From sequence record MK327937.1: a DNA stretch of 64,000 bases; one strand, given 5' to 3'. The notes below the pieces were generated by a model. It had not been told where the DNA came from, did not search any database, and was given only the letters and a program-made list of their open reading frames with translations. A program made the translations under genes and the position numbers. This stretch comes from Escherichia phage vB_EcoM_G10400. Positions 29,119 to 61,374 of this stretch are shown here, one piece after another; position 1 is the first letter of the stretch, and every line of letters starts with the position of its first letter.

Positions 29119-32256
<3,138 letters not shown>

Positions 32257-32287: not shown

Positions 32288-34267
32288 ATGACTTTATTAT
32301 CTCCGGGCATTGAGCTCAAAGAAACTACGGTTCAAAGCACCGTGGTTAATAACTCTACTGGTACAGCAGCTTTGGCCGGTAAATTCCAGTGGGGTCCTGC
32401 TTTTCAGATTAAACAGGTTACAAACGAAGTAGATTTAGTTAATACTTTTGGTCAACCTACAGCTGAAACTGCTGACTATTTTATGTCTGCAATGAATTTC
32501 TTACAATATGGAAATGATTTGCGAGTTGTGCGCGCTGTCGATAGAGATACCGCTAAAAACTCATCTCCGATTGCTGGTAATATTGAATACACAATTTCTA
32601 CCCCAGGTAGTAACTACGCGGTTGGAGATAAAATCACGGTCAAATATGTTTCAGATGATATTGAAACTGAAGGTAAAATTACTGAAGTAGACGCAGATGG
32701 AAAAATTAAGAAAATTAATATTCCTACTGCAAAAATTATTGCTAAAGCTAAAGAAGTTGGCGAATACCCAGCATTAGGTTCTAACTGGACTGCAGAAATT
32801 TCTTCATCTTCTTCCGGTTTAGCTGCAGTAATAACTCTTGGAAAAATTATTACTGATTCCGGTATTTTATTAGCTGAAATCGAGAGCGCTGAAACTGCTA
32901 TGACAGCAGTTGATTTTCAGGCAAATCTTGAAAAATATGGAATTCCAGGAGTAGTAGCTCTCTATCCAGGCGAATTAGGCGATAAAATTGAAATTGAAAT
33001 CGTATCTAAAGCTGACTATGCGAAAGGCGCTTCTGCATTACTCCCAATTTATCCAGGTGGTGGTACTCGCGCATCTACTGCCAAAGCAGTGTTTGGATAT
33101 GGACCACAAACTGATTCACAGTACGCCATTATAGTTCGTCGTAATGATGCTATTGTTCAAAGCGTTGTTCTTTCAACTAAGCGTGGTGAAAAAGATATTT
33201 ACGATAGTAACATCTATATCGATGACTTTTTCGCAAAAGGTGGTTCAGAATATATTTTTGCAACTGCACAAAACTGGCCAGAAGGCTTCTCTGGAATTTT
33301 AACTCTGTCTGGTGGATTATCATCAAATGCTGAAGTAACAGCAGGAGATTTGATGGAAGCTTGGGACTTCTTTGCTGACCGTGAATCTGTTGACGTTCAA
33401 CTGTTTATTGCGGGTTCTTGTGCTGGTGAATCTTTAGAAACAGCATCTACTGTCCAAAAACACGTCGTTTCAATTGGTGATGCTCGCCAGGATTGCTTAG
33501 TATTGTGCTCTCCTCCGCGTGAAACTGTAGTTGGAATTCCTGTAACTCGTGCAGTAGATAATTTAGTTAACTGGAGAACTGCGGCAGGTTCATACACTGA
33601 TAATAACTTTAATATCAGTTCAACCTATGCAGCAATTGATGGTAACTATAAGTATCAGTATGACAAATATAATGATGTGAATCGTTGGGTTCCATTAGCA
33701 GCTGATATTGCTGGTTTATGCGCAAGAACTGATAACGTATCTCAGACTTGGATGTCTCCAGCTGGTTATAATCGTGGCCAAATTTTGAACGTTATTAAAC
33801 TGGCTATTGAAACTCGCCAGGCTCAGCGCGACCGTTTATACCAAGAAGCTATCAACCCGGTAACCGGTACAGGTGGTGATGGTTACGTATTGTATGGTGA
33901 TAAAACAGCTACTTCTGTTCCTTCTCCATTTGATCGTATTAACGTTCGTCGTCTGTTTAATATGTTGAAAACGAATATCGGACGTAGTTCAAAATATCGT
34001 TTGTTCGAATTAAACAACGCGTTTACTCGTTCATCATTCCGCACAGAAACTGCCCAGTACTTGCAGGGAATTAAAGCTCTCGGTGGAATTTATGAATATC
34101 GTGTAGTTTGCGATACAACAAATAATACTCCGTCAGTAATTGATAGAAATGAGTTTGTTGCAACATTCTACATCCAACCGGCTCGTAGTATAAATTATAT
34201 CCAACTTAATTTCGTCGCAACTGCTACTGGTGCAGATTTTGATGAGTTAACTGGTCTTGCAGGTTAA
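32288..34267 (+). CDS. 18: tail sheath protein gp18
   Basis: 659 aa; length and order match T4. Confidence 0.9.
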   Translation: MTLLSPGIELKETTVQSTVVNNSTGTAALAGKFQWGPAFQIKQVTNEVDLVNTFGQPTAETADYFMSAMNFLQYGNDLRVVRAVDRDTAKNSSPIAGNIEYTISTPGSNYAVGDKITVKYVSDDIETEGKITEVDADGKIKKINIPTAKIIAKAKEVGEYPALGSNWTAEISSSSSGLAAVITLGKIITDSGILLAEIESAETAMTAVDFQANLEKYGIPGVVALYPGELGDKIEIEIVSKADYAKGASALLPIYPGGGTRASTAKAVFGYGPQTDSQYAIIVRRNDAIVQSVVLSTKRGEKDIYDSNIYIDDFFAKGGSEYIFATAQNWPEGFSGILTLSGGLSSNAEVTAGDLMEAWDFFADRESVDVQLFIAGSCAGESLETASTVQKHVVSIGDARQDCLVLCSPPRETVVGIPVTRAVDNLVNWRTAAGSYTDNNFNISSTYAAIDGNYKYQYDKYNDVNRWVPLAADIAGLCARTDNVSQTWMSPAGYNRGQILNVIKLAIETRQAQRDRLYQEAINPVTGTGGDGYVLYGDKTATSVPSPFDRINVRRLFNMLKTNIGRSSKYRLFELNNAFTRSSFRTETAQYLQGIKALGGIYEYRVVCDTTNNTPSVIDRNEFVATFYIQPARSINYIQLNFVATATGADFDELTGLAG

Positions 34268-34275
34268 TTGATTAT

Positions 34276-34289
34276 GGGGCTTCGGCCCC
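34276..34289 (+). terminator. stem-loop after gene 18
   Basis: ggggcttcggcccc perfect hairpin with UUCG loop, 9 nt after the gp18 stop. Confidence 0.6.
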
Positions 34290-34306
34290 TATTCTCGAGG
34301 AAACAA

Positions 34307-34912
34307 GTGATTATTTCTAAGTTTGTTACAATAAAACCAAGAAATCATTCAAAAATGTGGTCGACAATTCTGGGATATAAAGTATCATATCATGATACAG
34401 TATCTGTTCCAATAGAATTAATGCCAAAGAATAGTAATAAAATAGTTGACGCTAAATGTGATTTGTGTGGTACTAAATTTAGTAGAAGCATTCAACTTTT
34501 AAATAGAACACCCACACATGCATGTAGAAAATGTAGCATTAAACAAGTTGCTATTAAAAATTCGGAAGTTCAATCTGGAATAAGCAGACCATGGCAAAGA
34601 GGCGATAAACATCCTCGATGGACTGGTAAAAGAAAAGAGTTTGCATTATATGCTAGTAGAGTTCATTCTATAACTAAGTCAGCTAAAATAAGAAAAATTT
34701 GGTCAAAATGGCCGAATGCTGATAAAATAGGAGTGTGTGGAGTAGAAGGTGCTTACCAACTCGATCATAAAGTATCTATCAAATATGGATTTGATAATTT
34801 AATTCCGCCGGAAATTATAGCAAGCGTAAAAAATTTAGAAATAATCACTTGGGAATCTAACCGAGAAAAGTCAAAAAGAAATAGCGTAGATCTTTGGGAT
34901 TTACTAGAATGA
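34307..34912 (+). CDS. HNH homing endonuclease inserted between genes 18 and 19 (start uncertain: GTG 34307 after GAGG, or ATG 34355)
   Basis: C-terminal HNH signature YQLDHKVSIKYGFDNL...LEIITWESNREK and a four-Cys pattern (CDLCG...CRKC); the track ORF (34268-34912) runs through the gp18 terminator hairpin, so the true start is downstream of it. Confidence 0.65.
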   Translation: MIISKFVTIKPRNHSKMWSTILGYKVSYHDTVSVPIELMPKNSNKIVDAKCDLCGTKFSRSIQLLNRTPTHACRKCSIKQVAIKNSEVQSGISRPWQRGDKHPRWTGKRKEFALYASRVHSITKSAKIRKIWSKWPNADKIGVCGVEGAYQLDHKVSIKYGFDNLIPPEIIASVKNLEIITWESNREKSKRNSVDLWDLLE

Positions 34913-34919
34913 TTCTAAA

Positions 34920-34937
34920 GGCCTGTTTCGACAGGCC
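34920..34937 (+). terminator. hairpin after the HNH gene
   Basis: ggcctgtttcgacaggcc inverted repeat. Confidence 0.55.
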
Positions 34938-34938
34938 A

Positions 34939-35005
34939 TATAAATACACTATATCCTTAATTCTTTAATTCTATATGCCCTAGGTTAAACATAGGGATAT
35001 AAATA
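34939..35005 (+). promoter_or_regulatory. two late promoters (TATAAATA at 34939-34946 and 34998-35005) upstream of gene 19
   Basis: Two exact TATAAATA octamers; the second is ~15 nt upstream of the gp19 ATG. Confidence 0.6.
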
Positions 35006-35019
35006 CTACAGAGGCTAAT

Positions 35020-35511
35020 ATGTTTGTAGATGATGTAACACGAGCGTTTGAATCTGGTGATTTTGCTCGACCTAACTTATTCCAAGTAGAAATTTCTTAT
35101 CTTGGACAAAATTTTACGTTCCAATGTAAAGCCACTGCTTTACCAGCTGGTATTGTAGAAAAAATTCCAGTCGGATTTATGAACCGTAAAATTAACGTAG
35201 CAGGCGATCGTACATTCGATGACTGGACTGTTACAGTAATGAACGATGAAGCTCATGATGCTCGCCAGAAGTTCGTTGATTGGCAAAGCATTGCTGCTGG
35301 TCAAGGAAACGAAATTACTGGTGGAAAACCTGCAGAGTATAAAAAGAGCGCTATTGTTCGTCAATATGCTCGTGATGCTAAAACAGTAACAAAAGAAATT
35401 GAAATTAAAGGTCTGTGGCCTACTAACGTGGGTGAACTTCAATTAGATTGGGATTCAAACAATGAAATCCAAACCTTTGAAGTAACTCTTGCTCTCGATT
35501 ATTGGGAATAA
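35020..35511 (+). CDS. 19: tail tube protein gp19
   Basis: 163 aa; length and order match T4. Confidence 0.9.
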   Translation: MFVDDVTRAFESGDFARPNLFQVEISYLGQNFTFQCKATALPAGIVEKIPVGFMNRKINVAGDRTFDDWTVTVMNDEAHDARQKFVDWQSIAAGQGNEITGGKPAEYKKSAIVRQYARDAKTVTKEIEIKGLWPTNVGELQLDWDSNNEIQTFEVTLALDYWE

Positions 35512-57255: not shown

Positions 57256-59313
57256 CTACATTTTGAACTTTTTAGACATTCCGTTGATGTTAACCAAAGA
57301 AGCCAAGATTTGAGAAACTTCATTTTCCTCTTCTTTTGATTCTTCTACAAGGAATTGATTAAATCCAGCCATTGGACGAACTTCACCAGTTTCCATTAGA
57401 TGGTCTCCATCATATACTGATTCTTCTAATTGTTCAGAAGGAGGAACGATTGTACCTTCGATTAGATACTTGTTATAAGCAGTTTCTTTCATAAAGTACG
57501 TACTTACTTTATTAATCTTCAGTAAAATTCCACGTGGTAGAATAACTTCAGCTTCTGATGGAAATCCTGATAAATGACCTGGAACGATAACTTTGATTCG
57601 CTCAGCTCCTTTAATTATCATACCCACGCTAGTTTCTGCATCTTCATTAGCATATGTAGAATGACTACCCATATGCATCAAATCTTCTGCATCAACGGAA
57701 CCTTCTCCTTCACCAGAAAATACTGCGCCGGAATCATCTAGAGCCATATAGTTTTTACCATGCTCACCGAAGATATTTGGTTTAAGCGATGTGGATACGA
57801 AGTTCTTGAAATAGAACATTTTATTTTCAATGTTATGACGCAAAGTTTTAAAGGTAACTTCTTGCCCACGGTAAAGTGTAGTTCCTGGAGGAAGAACTGA
57901 TCCTTTGGCAAAGGCAGAATCTAACGTCTCGATGTGCTTAATAGCTCGTTCCATGTATTCTTCACGGGTAGAATCTGGTTTACCCAAAAGGAACGAGTTC
58001 ATTTCAACATATGAATCTGCACAATAATCTTCAATTACATCAGATTCAGCCTGAGTCAGTCCTTTTGGAGCTACTTCGGTGCTTGCGTATTCATATGCCT
58101 GGGCAGCAGATTCATTAATCAATTTATAAATGCCATTCATGACAAATTGAATAATAGCTGTCTTTTCATCTGGTGTGGTTTTAGAACCTTTAACTAAATC
58201 ATTAATAATTTTCTTAATAACATCAAAGCTATTAGAAATATTAATGTCAGCAAGATCGCTTAAAATTTTATCAGTTTTATAATCAAAGAATTCTTTATTC
58301 TTTAAATATTCTTGAGAACCTTGATATGTTATATCGCTCTGCAACTTGATAGATGGATCACGTAAACGTGCATGGGCCAATGCAATATGATTTCGGAAGC
58401 TTTCTAGTTCATAATCGTTAGATTTAAAACGAGAAGCACTTCTCATACCACCGATAGCTCCTTTGCTGAAGTTTGAACCAATCTGGATAACGCCAGAGTT
58501 CATCGGACCTTCTGCTTTATATACCGGAACTTTAGATTCAAACTCTTGATATTTCTTGGCAGCAAAGCTATCACCCTGAAGTGAAGCATCAACAGTAGAA
58601 TATTGAGCTTGTGCTGCTAATCGACGACTTATTTTAGTTTTCTGAATAACAGCTTGGTCCGTGCGCTTATCATTTTCTAAAGCAATAGAAGCAGCAACAG
58701 CGACAGCTTTAGGAACAGCATTTCCTGTTTTAACGTCTACATAAACATCACCGACCTTTGATTCAACTTTTGTGAATAACTCAGTTGAAATAGGAGGTAC
58801 ACCTGGAATGTCTTCTAAATTGGCATTTTTACGGTAAACCATAATATATGCATATTTCTTATCATAGTCCCAGATTTCCTTTAAAAGAACATATCGACCT
58901 GCTCCTTTAGTACGTACTAAACGGTCAGCAATAACTTGCATTTGACGAGCTGCGCCATTTGTTTTACTTTTTAGTACGCGGAATAGGCATGCGTCGATTT
59001 TATACTGTTTCATTGTTTGAAGAGCAGTATCAAAAACGGCATTAATGACACCAATTGGATTTCCACCCAAGTTTTTAAGCTTAACTAATGATAGTTTCTC
59101 ATTAACACCTATCATTACGATATGCATCATTTTATCGCCTGGCTTAACGTTTTTATTCGTATCACCACCAGAGGTGTATGTACAAAATCTAAATCCAGGA
59201 AGCACGCTTTCTTCGCCGGCTTGAATAGCAAAAATTTGTGGTATTTTATGCTTAGGATTTAAGTTAACAACCGGCGCCGAAGCGCCGTCAAATAATTCTG
59301 TAATAAGTTCCAT
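57256..59313 (-). CDS. Alt-like ADP-ribosyltransferase paralog (capsid-packaged injected effector family)
   Basis: 685 aa; N-terminus MELITELFD shared with the adjacent ORF; ART-like motifs TTLYRGQ, FVSTSL, SEAEVILPRG (R / STS / E-x-E). Confidence 0.7.
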   Translation of the reverse strand: MELITELFDGASAPVVNLNPKHKIPQIFAIQAGEESVLPGFRFCTYTSGGDTNKNVKPGDKMMHIVMIGVNEKLSLVKLKNLGGNPIGVINAVFDTALQTMKQYKIDACLFRVLKSKTNGAARQMQVIADRLVRTKGAGRYVLLKEIWDYDKKYAYIMVYRKNANLEDIPGVPPISTELFTKVESKVGDVYVDVKTGNAVPKAVAVAASIALENDKRTDQAVIQKTKISRRLAAQAQYSTVDASLQGDSFAAKKYQEFESKVPVYKAEGPMNSGVIQIGSNFSKGAIGGMRSASRFKSNDYELESFRNHIALAHARLRDPSIKLQSDITYQGSQEYLKNKEFFDYKTDKILSDLADINISNSFDVIKKIINDLVKGSKTTPDEKTAIIQFVMNGIYKLINESAAQAYEYASTEVAPKGLTQAESDVIEDYCADSYVEMNSFLLGKPDSTREEYMERAIKHIETLDSAFAKGSVLPPGTTLYRGQEVTFKTLRHNIENKMFYFKNFVSTSLKPNIFGEHGKNYMALDDSGAVFSGEGEGSVDAEDLMHMGSHSTYANEDAETSVGMIIKGAERIKVIVPGHLSGFPSEAEVILPRGILLKINKVSTYFMKETAYNKYLIEGTIVPPSEQLEESVYDGDHLMETGEVRPMAGFNQFLVEESKEEENEVSQILASLVNINGMSKKFKM

Positions 59314-59316
59314 GAT

Positions 59317-61374
59317 TTATCCTTGAACGAACTTGTAAGGCATGTTTGCAATATCTATACAAGACGCAATAATTCCAAGAGATGATTCTACTTTCTGTTT
59401 AACATTTGATGAAACAAATGATGCAAAGTCAACTCTGTCTTCTACTTCAATATCACCTGTCATTGTAACTACTTCGCCGGTTTCCATTAGACGGTCACCG
59501 TCATAAATTACCGATTCGGTGAGTTCTTCTGTGGTCATAACTTCAGCTTGAATAAGCTTGTTGTTAGTTTTAACTGTTCCATCATTGTAAGATGCATCGG
59601 TTATTTTATTAACTTTGACCATTAATCCACGTGGCAAAATGACTTCCATTTCATTTGAAGGTGCTAAACTTCCACCTGGTAAAACAACATTGACTTTATC
59701 AGCCCCAGTAATAACCCATCCAATTCCAACTAAATTATCGCTAGAATTTACTAGTCCTTCATCAGTTTTATCAATAGAAACACTTAAACGCTTTTCGTCT
59801 GGTAAAACACCCACAGATGAATCAGTCATCCAGGTACCAAAAATATTTGGATATAATGATGTTGACACAAAGTTTCTAAAATAAAAAACTCGATTTTTTA
59901 CCATTGCTTCATATATTGAAGGTAACATTCGTTGTGAACGATACAAAGTAATACCTTTTGGTAATCGTTCACCATTTTTAAAGGCTGAATCTAAATTATC
60001 AATAGCTTTTTCTATGTCAGATGCTGTCAAAATACTTGTACGCTCATCTGGATTATATAATCCCAAAAGAGCATTATTTATATCTACATATCCTGAACCT
60101 ACGTATTCACGAATTCCGCGTTTTTGCGCCGGTGTGTATTTAGATGAATCTTTATTTTCGACTATAGGATGTAATGACCATCCAGCGGTAAGAGCATATC
60201 CACGTAATTCTCTTCGAATAATCTTTGTTTTTATTGCATTCCAAGAATTTTGTACTAACTCATTTGCAGCATCTTGGTTTAAATGCGAATGTTTGTTAAT
60301 ATTTCTTTCAAACCAAGCACCTTTATATTTTTCTAAGGTATCATCGACGATAGAAGCAATAGTTTCTAAAGTTTTTATTGAAGTAATAGATTCTTTTTTT
60401 AATTTTTCTAAAGCTTTATTTTTTATTTCTGCATTAATAATGGATTCTTTATCTTCAGGAATTATAGAAGCTTCTCTGAATGCCATCCCAGCTGTAACAC
60501 TGCTAAGAGCATTCTCTAGTGCAAATCCTGAAGTAGAAATTACCGTTAATTCATTAGAATCAGAAATTAAAGGCGCGTCCGCTGGTTTATTTAATTCTGC
60601 CGCTGAAGCCTCAAATTTTTGAAACATCGGTGTTTCAAATCTAGAAGATTCCAATGACTGACTTTGTGCAATTGCTCTACGGGAAATTTTAACTTTAACG
60701 ATTACAGCTTGGTCAGAACGTTTATCATTTTCTTGTGCAATAGATGCTGCAATTGCCTCATTTTTAGTTACTTGAGCTCCAGTATCTTTATTGATATAAA
60801 CATCACCGACCTTCGATTCAACTTTAGTAAAGAGCTCGGTACTAATTTCTGGAACTCCTGGAATGTCTTCTAGTGATACATTTTTGCGATGTATAAGAAT
60901 ATATGCATACTTTTTATCATAATCCCAGAGTTCCTTAAGAAGGACGTATCTGCCACCTGAACGACTACGGATAAGTCTATCAGCAATAACTTGAATTTGT
61001 CGAGCTTGACCAGCGGTTTTAGACTTAAGAATACGAAGCATACAGGCATCAATTTTATACTGACGCATTGTTTGCATCGCAACAGTAAAAACTGAATTGA
61101 TATAATTAATTGGGCTTGGACCAAGACCTTTTAATTTAGCAATTGAACCTTTAGCAGTTAATGTAAAAGGAACAATATGCATCATTTTATCGCCCATCTT
61201 TAAATCGCGATTAGTATCACCTCCAGATGTATAGGTACATAAACGAAAGCCTGGTTGTTCAATTGCATCATCAACATGAACTGAAAAAATTTGCGGTATT
61301 TTCTTCTTTGGATTTAAGTTTGTAATCGGAAGAGTAGTATCTTCGTCAAATAATTCTGTAATAAGTTCCATCAT
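59317..61374 (-). CDS. alt: Alt ADP-ribosyltransferase (adjacent to gene 30, as T4 alt)
   Basis: 685 aa; MMELITELFDEDTTLPITNL...; ART motifs ITLYRSQ, FVSTSL, EMEVILPRG; TATAAATA late promoter on minus strand at 61395-61402. Confidence 0.8.
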   Translation of the reverse strand: MMELITELFDEDTTLPITNLNPKKKIPQIFSVHVDDAIEQPGFRLCTYTSGGDTNRDLKMGDKMMHIVPFTLTAKGSIAKLKGLGPSPINYINSVFTVAMQTMRQYKIDACMLRILKSKTAGQARQIQVIADRLIRSRSGGRYVLLKELWDYDKKYAYILIHRKNVSLEDIPGVPEISTELFTKVESKVGDVYINKDTGAQVTKNEAIAASIAQENDKRSDQAVIVKVKISRRAIAQSQSLESSRFETPMFQKFEASAAELNKPADAPLISDSNELTVISTSGFALENALSSVTAGMAFREASIIPEDKESIINAEIKNKALEKLKKESITSIKTLETIASIVDDTLEKYKGAWFERNINKHSHLNQDAANELVQNSWNAIKTKIIRRELRGYALTAGWSLHPIVENKDSSKYTPAQKRGIREYVGSGYVDINNALLGLYNPDERTSILTASDIEKAIDNLDSAFKNGERLPKGITLYRSQRMLPSIYEAMVKNRVFYFRNFVSTSLYPNIFGTWMTDSSVGVLPDEKRLSVSIDKTDEGLVNSSDNLVGIGWVITGADKVNVVLPGGSLAPSNEMEVILPRGLMVKVNKITDASYNDGTVKTNNKLIQAEVMTTEELTESVIYDGDRLMETGEVVTMTGDIEVEDRVDFASFVSSNVKQKVESSLGIIASCIDIANMPYKFVQG

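Follow-up and report, generated by a model that had tools for sequence, protein, structure and literature searches.

A stretch of 64,000 nucleotides (nt) of Escherichia phage vB_EcoM_G10400 (sequence record MK327937.1; the whole stretch is referred to as the window) was analyzed at the junction of gene 18, coding for the tail sheath, and gene 19, coding for the tail tube, where an insert with a gene of the gp19.1 family is found (Table 1). In DNA sequence, the segment from 33800 to 35500 has 99.9% identity with Escherichia phage vB_EcoM_G4507 and 98.2% with phage T6, and the phage belongs to Tequatrovirus. Gene 17 (large terminase) ends at 32256 and gene 20 lies downstream of gene 19. In an initial annotation made from the letters, an open reading frame (ORF) had been called at 34268-34912 on the plus strand, at a site said to be without a gene in T4; the ORF is present in the ORF list, and the annotated T4 interval between genes 18 and 19 (116 nt) contains no gene. 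Judged by comparison with related loci, the insert is probably a free-standing homing endonuclease gene of the gp19.1 family.

The boundaries of the insert were set by alignment with seven insert-free Tequatroviruses, T4 included. The first base of the cassette is the next base after the TAA stop codon of gene 18, and its last base is the end of the stop codon of the inserted gene. At the empty sites this place is taken by 9 nt, TACGGTGCA (TACGATGCA in JEP6), as against 645 nt in the window phage and T6 and 656 nt in RB3. The flanks of the insertion are about 97-99% identical between the window and the insert-free genomes.

Table 1. Coordinates of the features at the gene 18-gene 19 junction (positions in the window).
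Feature	Position	Strand	Basis
Gene 18, tail sheath (upstream host gene)	32288..34267	+	ORF list; homologous loci annotated as tail sheath
Recoded gene 18 patch, codons for A-R-S-I-N-Y-I-Q-L-N-F-V	34184..34216	+	Alignment with T4
Insert (leader and gene), 645 bp	34268..34912	+	Alignment with insert-free Tequatroviruses
Cassette C(UUCG)G tetraloop hairpin, GGGGC-TTCG-GCCCC	34276..34289	+	Letters, folding
Shine-Dalgarno sequence GAGG, 6 nt 5' of the GTG start	34297..34300	+	Letters
Coding sequence of the gp19.1-family protein, 201 residues; GTG start, TGA stop at 34910-34912	34307..34912	+	Homologues, T6 annotation
Cys4 zinc-finger core (C51, C54, C73, C76) of the putative N-terminal DNA-binding domain	34457..34534	+	Family alignment
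Beta-beta-alpha-metal (HNH-like) core	34754..34876	+	
Native T4-type UUCG hairpin, GGCCTGT-TTCG-ACAGGCC	34920..34937	+	Folding (-13.6 kcal/mol, z = -4.8)
Native late promoter TATAAATA, same in T4	34939..34946	+	Alignment, motif count
Second native late promoter TATAAATA, for gene 19	34998..35005	+	Alignment, motif count
Gene 19, tail tube (downstream host gene)	35020..35511	+	ORF list, homologous annotation

The TTG codon at 34268 is merely the first start codon after the preceding stop, and an ORF beginning there would enclose the cassette hairpin. The gene almost certainly starts at the GTG codon at 34307, because this codon is preceded by the GAGG sequence, all homologues have the N-terminus MIISK or MIITK, the phrog_5104 alignment starts at the corresponding residue, and the gene is annotated with 606 nt in T6.

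The cassette hairpin sits 9 nt past the gene 18 stop codon and is common to two types of insert, here called T6-type and RB3-type; with its extension (UUGA/UCGA), the stem takes in the first two Shine-Dalgarno bases. The downstream hairpin and both promoters match T4 except for one base in the hairpin. By alignment, the upstream UUCG hairpin is cassette DNA and not the native gene 18 hairpin, and T4's own hairpin corresponds to the one downstream. The initial annotation had located the first hairpin correctly, and likewise the hairpin and the two TATAAATA promoters ahead of gene 19; its description of the first hairpin as the terminator of gene 18 had to be dropped, as that hairpin is borne by the cassette and absent from T4. 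No T-run follows either hairpin and the intrinsic-terminator scan was empty, and both hairpins were rejected as intrinsic terminators. An Rfam scan of 33900-35200 returned no RNA family. It is possible that the cassette supplies gene 18 with a replacement 3' hairpin, which would preserve the usual structure of the transcript end.

The late promoter sequence TATAAATA occurs in 24 copies in the window, against 10.4 expected. Because the cassette carries no TATAAATA of its own in Tequatrovirus and the nearest one upstream is the gene 18 promoter at 32252, the inserted gene is probably transcribed late, by read-through from that promoter. A TATAAATT generated at 34189-34196 by the recoded patch of gene 18 was considered as a late promoter of the inserted gene and rejected, since, unlike TATAAATA, it is not enriched in the window (11 copies against 13.7 expected). 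The homologues of VR7, Mokit, CHI14 and Bp7 carry a genuine TATAAATA right upstream of the gene. The leaders concerned are those of VR7 (L017, 1434-1500), Mokit (L003, 1450-1500), CHI14 (L016, 1401-1500) and Bp7 (L012, 2320-2500), and in the VR7 and Mokit leaders the box lies inside a strong hairpin. In the leaders of Tequatrovirus and Jiaodavirus the hairpin is present and the box is absent.

In the proposed enzyme, a Cys4 zinc-finger domain for DNA binding at the N-terminus would be connected, by a linker with a GxxHPRW(N/T) motif, to a divergent nuclease domain of the HNH (beta-beta-alpha-metal) type at the C-terminus. The Cys4 pattern (CDLC...CRKC) and the HNH-like motif (DH...NL...N) recognized in the initial annotation are both present and conserved in the family. 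In the nuclease core, strand beta1 (residues 150-154) ends in D153-H154, N176 stands ahead of strand beta2 (177-181), and the following helix (182-190) carries N185. The most conserved feature of the family is the C-terminal motif YQLDH...GF...NL...W.xN..K. Residues D153, H154, N176, L177, N185 and K188 are invariant in the 39 closer homologues and kept in at least 90% of 144 representatives with 24-44% identity to the window protein; the catalytic His and Asn residues, whose loss had been named beforehand as a finding that would speak against an endonuclease, are therefore retained. The AF2 models (pLDDT 87) have a beta-beta-alpha topology, and the fold resembles that of nucleases.

The search with HNH profile models proposed in the initial annotation was run, and no curated HNH model matched the window protein (Pfam and NCBIfam, whole protein or C-terminal half). 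The family profile gave no HNH match against PDB sequences, where chance zinc-finger matches only were obtained, and the sole match in PHROGs was phrog_5104, described as 'unknown function'. Weak Pfam HNH or HNH_4 matches were found in a few relatives (best E = 9.5e-4), and the Pfam DUF4379 treble-clef match, sub-threshold in the window protein (E = 0.013), reached 7e-6 in relatives. An exhaustive profile search collected 6200 clusters (50% identity) at E <= 0.001. In longer relatives the catalytic domain is joined to NUMOD3, helix-turn-helix arrays, DUF7487 or DUF4379; such a modular build of nuclease and binding modules is typical of homing enzymes. On the motif, the predicted fold and the weak matches in relatives, assignment of the window protein to the HNH nucleases is likely, and the gp19.1 protein is best described as a member of a divergent HNH family missed by the curated libraries.

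Two other functions were weighed against these features. The near-threshold curated matches of the window protein were to zinc-finger models only (DUF4379, Zn_ribbon_8) and the gene lies in the late operon beside hairpins and promoters, as might be said of a zinc-finger DNA- or RNA-binding regulator of the late tail genes with no nuclease activity; that the family's most conserved positions are the DH...N...N residues, that the fold matches nucleases and that the gene is optional make such a regulator very unlikely. Fainter still is the prospect that the protein aids DNA packaging as a terminase-associated HNH protein of the HK97 gp74/GVE2 type. HNH proteins of this type were the closest structural matches and gene 17 lies one gene upstream, but headful packaging in T4-type phages is carried out by gp16/gp17 alone, the gene is missing from T4 and most Tequatrovirus records, which package normally, and the protein has an extra zinc-finger DNA-binding domain, as is typical of site-specific enzymes. 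Membership in the terminase-associated class was rejected, a required partner being expected throughout a phage group and T4 and most relatives being without the gene.

In function the element looks like a T4-type free-standing homing endonuclease. It resembles T4 MobE, a free-standing HNH homing endonuclease encoded between nrdA and nrdB. MobE lacks a promoter of its own and relies on transcription from upstream; it is under the control of RNA structure and nicks the adjacent gene, its own copy of the site being polymorphic and hence protected (PMC2790892). The gp19.1 gene is likewise intergenic, free-standing and without its own promoter, would rely on transcription from upstream, and has RNA structure close to its start; a target in a neighbouring conserved gene with clustered polymorphisms in the carrier, shown for MobE, is proposed here for gp19.1. 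The domain order differs, the HNH domain being N-terminal in the Mob proteins (PMC2790892) and C-terminal, after the zinc finger, in gp19.1. MobE reaches the Pfam HNH threshold (21.5 versus 21.4 bits), whereas the gp19.1 protein of the window does not, and hhalign of the gp19.1 family profile against T4 MobE gave a probability of 0.04%, with no sequence similarity. Membership in the T4 Mob family (mobA-E) was rejected on the reversed domain order and the lack of detectable similarity to MobE. The Gme HNH protein (PDB 4h9d) and the HNH protein of phage GVE2 (PDB 5h0o) are single-domain nicking endonucleases of about 95 residues; gp19.1 adds to such a domain a zinc-finger domain of about 95 residues and a linker, and no sequence-level match to them was found. 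The lifestyle proposed for gp19.1 is that of T4 SegG and SegF ('intronless homing'; cited in PMC2993671): a free-standing gene lies between conserved genes, its product would cut some way off the insertion site, and flanking markers would be co-converted. The catalytic family differs, SegG and SegF being GIY-YIG and gp19.1 HNH enzymes.

The gene 18-gene 19 junction was compared across T-even genomes and related phages, as had been suggested. Among about 500 Tequatrovirus-like records matching the junction at 90% identity or more, 69 have a T6-type and 48 an RB3-type insert and the rest have the precise empty site (record counts include RefSeq/GenBank duplicates). Occupancy is about 23%, so that the gene, far from being ubiquitous, is missing from about 77% of the Tequatrovirus records. 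The insert is optional in three more genera: full-length matches were obtained in 40 of about 140 Jiaodavirus records (at least 90% identity), and the insert is present in 13 of about 51 records of T4-like Acinetobacter phages (Hadassahvirus-like) and in 6 of about 34 of Gaprivervirus. The T6-type copies are 97.5-99.5% identical and occur in closely related genomes, and neither the window nor any listed copy has a broken reading frame.

Eight other homologous loci were opened, and in each a homologue (31-66% identity) occupied the interval separating the sheath gene from the tube gene: RB3, VR7, Merci (Jiaodavirus), CHI14 (Winklervirus), Bp7 (Dhakavirus), Mokit (Twarogvirinae), AS-zj (Emmerichvirinae) and, from outside Straboviridae, Sinorhizobium phage phiM7. 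In tblastn, the full-length matches at these loci were between 59% and 33% identical to the window protein, and AS-zj gave 48% over a partial match (45%). Such strict locus fidelity of an optional gene over wide divergence is what would be expected from a site-specific mobile endonuclease gene.

The same distribution bears on the view that the gene encodes an accessory nuclease retained for the benefit of the phage, which would exclude or degrade competitor DNA or counter host defences, with self-copying not its main role. The size of the family, the strong conservation of the catalytic residues and the occupation of one locus across very distant phages are all compatible with it, and homing endonucleases have been reported in phage-phage competition (PMC11620839) and, in T6, in defence evasion (PMC13096335). 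This view is nonetheless considered unlikely: most Tequatrovirus records do without the gene, which is optional in the other three genera too, and PADLOC gave no defence-family match for the window protein. It also overlaps with homing, marker exclusion being the same act seen from the side of the phage.

Several observations were made on individual genomes in the course of this survey. The VR26 allele (Gaprivervirus, NC_028957, about 98158-98805) is 33% identical to the window protein, compared with 59% for that of VR7, and occupies the same site, which is empty in other Gaprivervirus members. In Bp7 (NC_019500; L012, 3769-4350 and 4408-5630), a second optional gene separates the tail tube gene from the portal gene; its annotation reads 'HNH endonuclease', but Pfam gives just weak SegE GIY-YIG and NUMOD3 matches. 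The portal gene of Bp7 is annotated as two coding sequences. By hhalign the gp19.1 family showed no relation to this Bp7 protein, save for a short NUMOD3-like resemblance in the linker. Record MG010123 (Staphylococcus phage SAJK-IND) has a Tequatrovirus junction with an RB3-type allele, and OR584013 and PV654520 (Pseudomonas phages) match the junction at 98-99% and have a T6-type insert; the non-enterobacterial host labels of these records look doubtful.

The two Tequatrovirus alleles have the leader and hairpin in common. Their last 76 codons are 85% identical, in protein and DNA alike, whereas residues 13-125 share just 27% protein and 40% DNA identity, and the N-terminal domain of the RB3-type resembles those of Klebsiella, Serratia and Shewanella phages. 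The step in identity between the C-terminal and N-terminal parts indicates that, at one locus, a single nuclease domain has been combined with two distinct DNA-binding domains by recombination. The coexistence of two such alleles suggests an active, evolving element, and bears on the suggestion that the endonuclease is decaying or inactive and held in place by linkage to essential tail genes, the 69 near-identical copies having spread via descent and recombination. In line with that suggestion, the copies are nearly identical and found in close relatives, the gene lacks its own promoter in Tequatrovirus, and defunct endonucleases such as T4 I-TevIII do persist (PMC2790892). With the frame intact in every listed copy and all catalytic and zinc-binding residues kept, this history is given a low probability, below that of an accessory nuclease.

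A candidate target for a homing endonuclease was found in gene 18 itself. The last 330 nt of gene 18 are almost identical in the window and T4, except for 14 substitutions confined to positions -93 to -49 from the stop codon, which fall at nearly every third codon position and are all synonymous but for a Thr-to-Gln change. Some 12 codons of the sheath gene (PARSINYITLNF) make up the recoded patch, which lies 50-90 bp ahead of the insert and reads ATA AAT TAT where T4 has ATT AAC TAC. The patch was tested by comparing carriers with the nearest non-carrier, in one or two pairs per genus, using a 45-nt patch segment that was defined on Tequatrovirus and then applied to the other three genera. 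For clustering of the differences in this segment, Fisher's test gave p = 6e-9 (window versus T4) and p = 2.5e-7 (RB3 versus T4) in Tequatrovirus, p = 2e-7 in Jiaodavirus (YP11 versus TNG87 and Merci versus TNG87), p = 4e-4 in Hadassahvirus (Mokit versus Maestro) and p = 6e-7 in Gaprivervirus (VR7 versus VR25). Carriers in all four genera have ATA AAT T(A/T)T; most non-carriers have ATT/ATC, then AAC/AAT, then TAC/TAT/TTT. In Tequatrovirus, the T4-type patch was found in 246 records, few or none of which have the insert according to the counts; the exact T6-type patch was found in 67 records, close to the 69 records of the T6-type insert, and the RB3-type patch in 108, of which 48 have the insert. 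With few exceptions, the sheath proteins examined, that of phiM7 (PARSISYITLNF) included, conserve the peptide encoded there, PARSINYITLNF, and a near-unchangeable sequence is the kind of target favoured by homing enzymes. The patch is accordingly proposed, from these alignments, as a cleavage and immunity site: the putative target in insert-free genomes and a self-immune form in carriers.

The patch of one insert-free genome, that of Klebsiella phage ValerieMcCarty02 (L021, OR354876), has N at those third-codon positions that differ between carrier and non-carrier Jiaodaviruses. These Ns, in the last 90 nt or so of the sheath gene, suggest that the population was mixed or that the lysate used for sequencing contained both haplotypes.

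The following points weigh against homing directed at this patch. The definition of the patch segment on one genus before its use in the others, the small number of pairs and the duplicates among the records all reduce the force of the association. Some 60 of the 108 RB3-type patch records have no insert, and JEP6, EC121, QOTSP, Sf23, Ac3 and Apostate are recoded yet insert-free, which weakens the association further; recoded insert-free genomes would be expected in a homing cycle as resistant empty alleles. The carriers of the most divergent alleles (CHI14, Bp7 and AS-zj) retain ATT/ATC AAC TA(C/T), and because they are not recoded in the manner of the other carriers, their alleles may differ in specificity. 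The patch and the insert are so close (50-90 bp) that the association could also arise by linkage, or by co-conversion of a tract that came from a diverged donor, without the patch being the target. Finally, a literature search found no paper characterizing the gp19.1 protein.

If the gene does encode a homing endonuclease, its cycle can be sketched as follows. Late read-through from the gene 18 promoter, past the cassette's own UUCG hairpin, would yield the transcript. On co-infection with an insert-free relative, the enzyme would nick or cut the conserved 3' end of the relative's sheath gene, in the PARSINYITLNF-coding segment around ATT AAC TAC, in or beside ATTAACTAC. Repair by recombination off the carrier genome would then copy the cassette and the adjacent sheath-gene patch into the cut genome, and the carrier would be protected by the synonymous recoding of its target codons (ATA AAT TAT..., ATAAATTAT). 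A broader interpretation is put forward tentatively, at somewhat below even chances: gp19.1 may be a distinct clade of HNH homing endonucleases, outside the coverage of Pfam, that has tracked one target, the near-invariant PARSINYITLNF-coding segment, from the Straboviridae subfamilies to a Sinorhizobium Emdodecavirus, with two domain-swapped alleles competing at one locus, each linked to its own recoded target.

T6 ORF19.1, deposited in 1994, is the same gene (99.5% identity over 201 residues to the window protein); its VR7 counterpart, 59% identical, is named gp19.1. Both are recorded as 'hypothetical protein', with no function given. Nearly all other records are also 'hypothetical protein', and a few read HNH or homing endonuclease; members of the family are almost always annotated as hypothetical since the curated domain libraries miss the catalytic domain. 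The homologues in MW883059, OP168898 and PQ657792 are labelled 'holin' or 'type II restriction endonuclease', which are probably propagated mis-annotations. The initial annotation had read the gene as a probable homing-endonuclease acquisition; the comparative evidence favours the endonuclease, and the implied novelty is lost to the 1994 deposit of T6 ORF19.1. The element is of a well-known kind and will be no surprise to a specialist. What is new is the corrected anatomy of the locus, the wide locus specificity of the family, the mosaic pair of alleles and a testable prediction of the target site.

Elsewhere in the window, two tandem ORFs of 685 residues each are found on the minus strand at 57256-59313 and 59317-61374. 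They are 41% identical to each other (E = 2e-162) and, judged by map position, probably code for Alt-like paralogues; T4 has one alt gene at this position.

The comparison leaves a candidate target of about 40 bp, in T4 ...GCT AGA AGC ATT AAC TAC ATT ACC TTA AAC TTC..., together with a naturally resistant version of it. Homing endonucleases bias the survival of alleles in co-infection and shape the mosaicism of phage genomes. If the gp19.1 enzyme is active, the sheath/tube junction would be a hot spot of recombination and marker exclusion within the most conserved structural block of the T4-like phages, and this would affect phylogenies built from genes 18 and 19 as well as what results when T-even phages are mixed in therapeutic cocktails.

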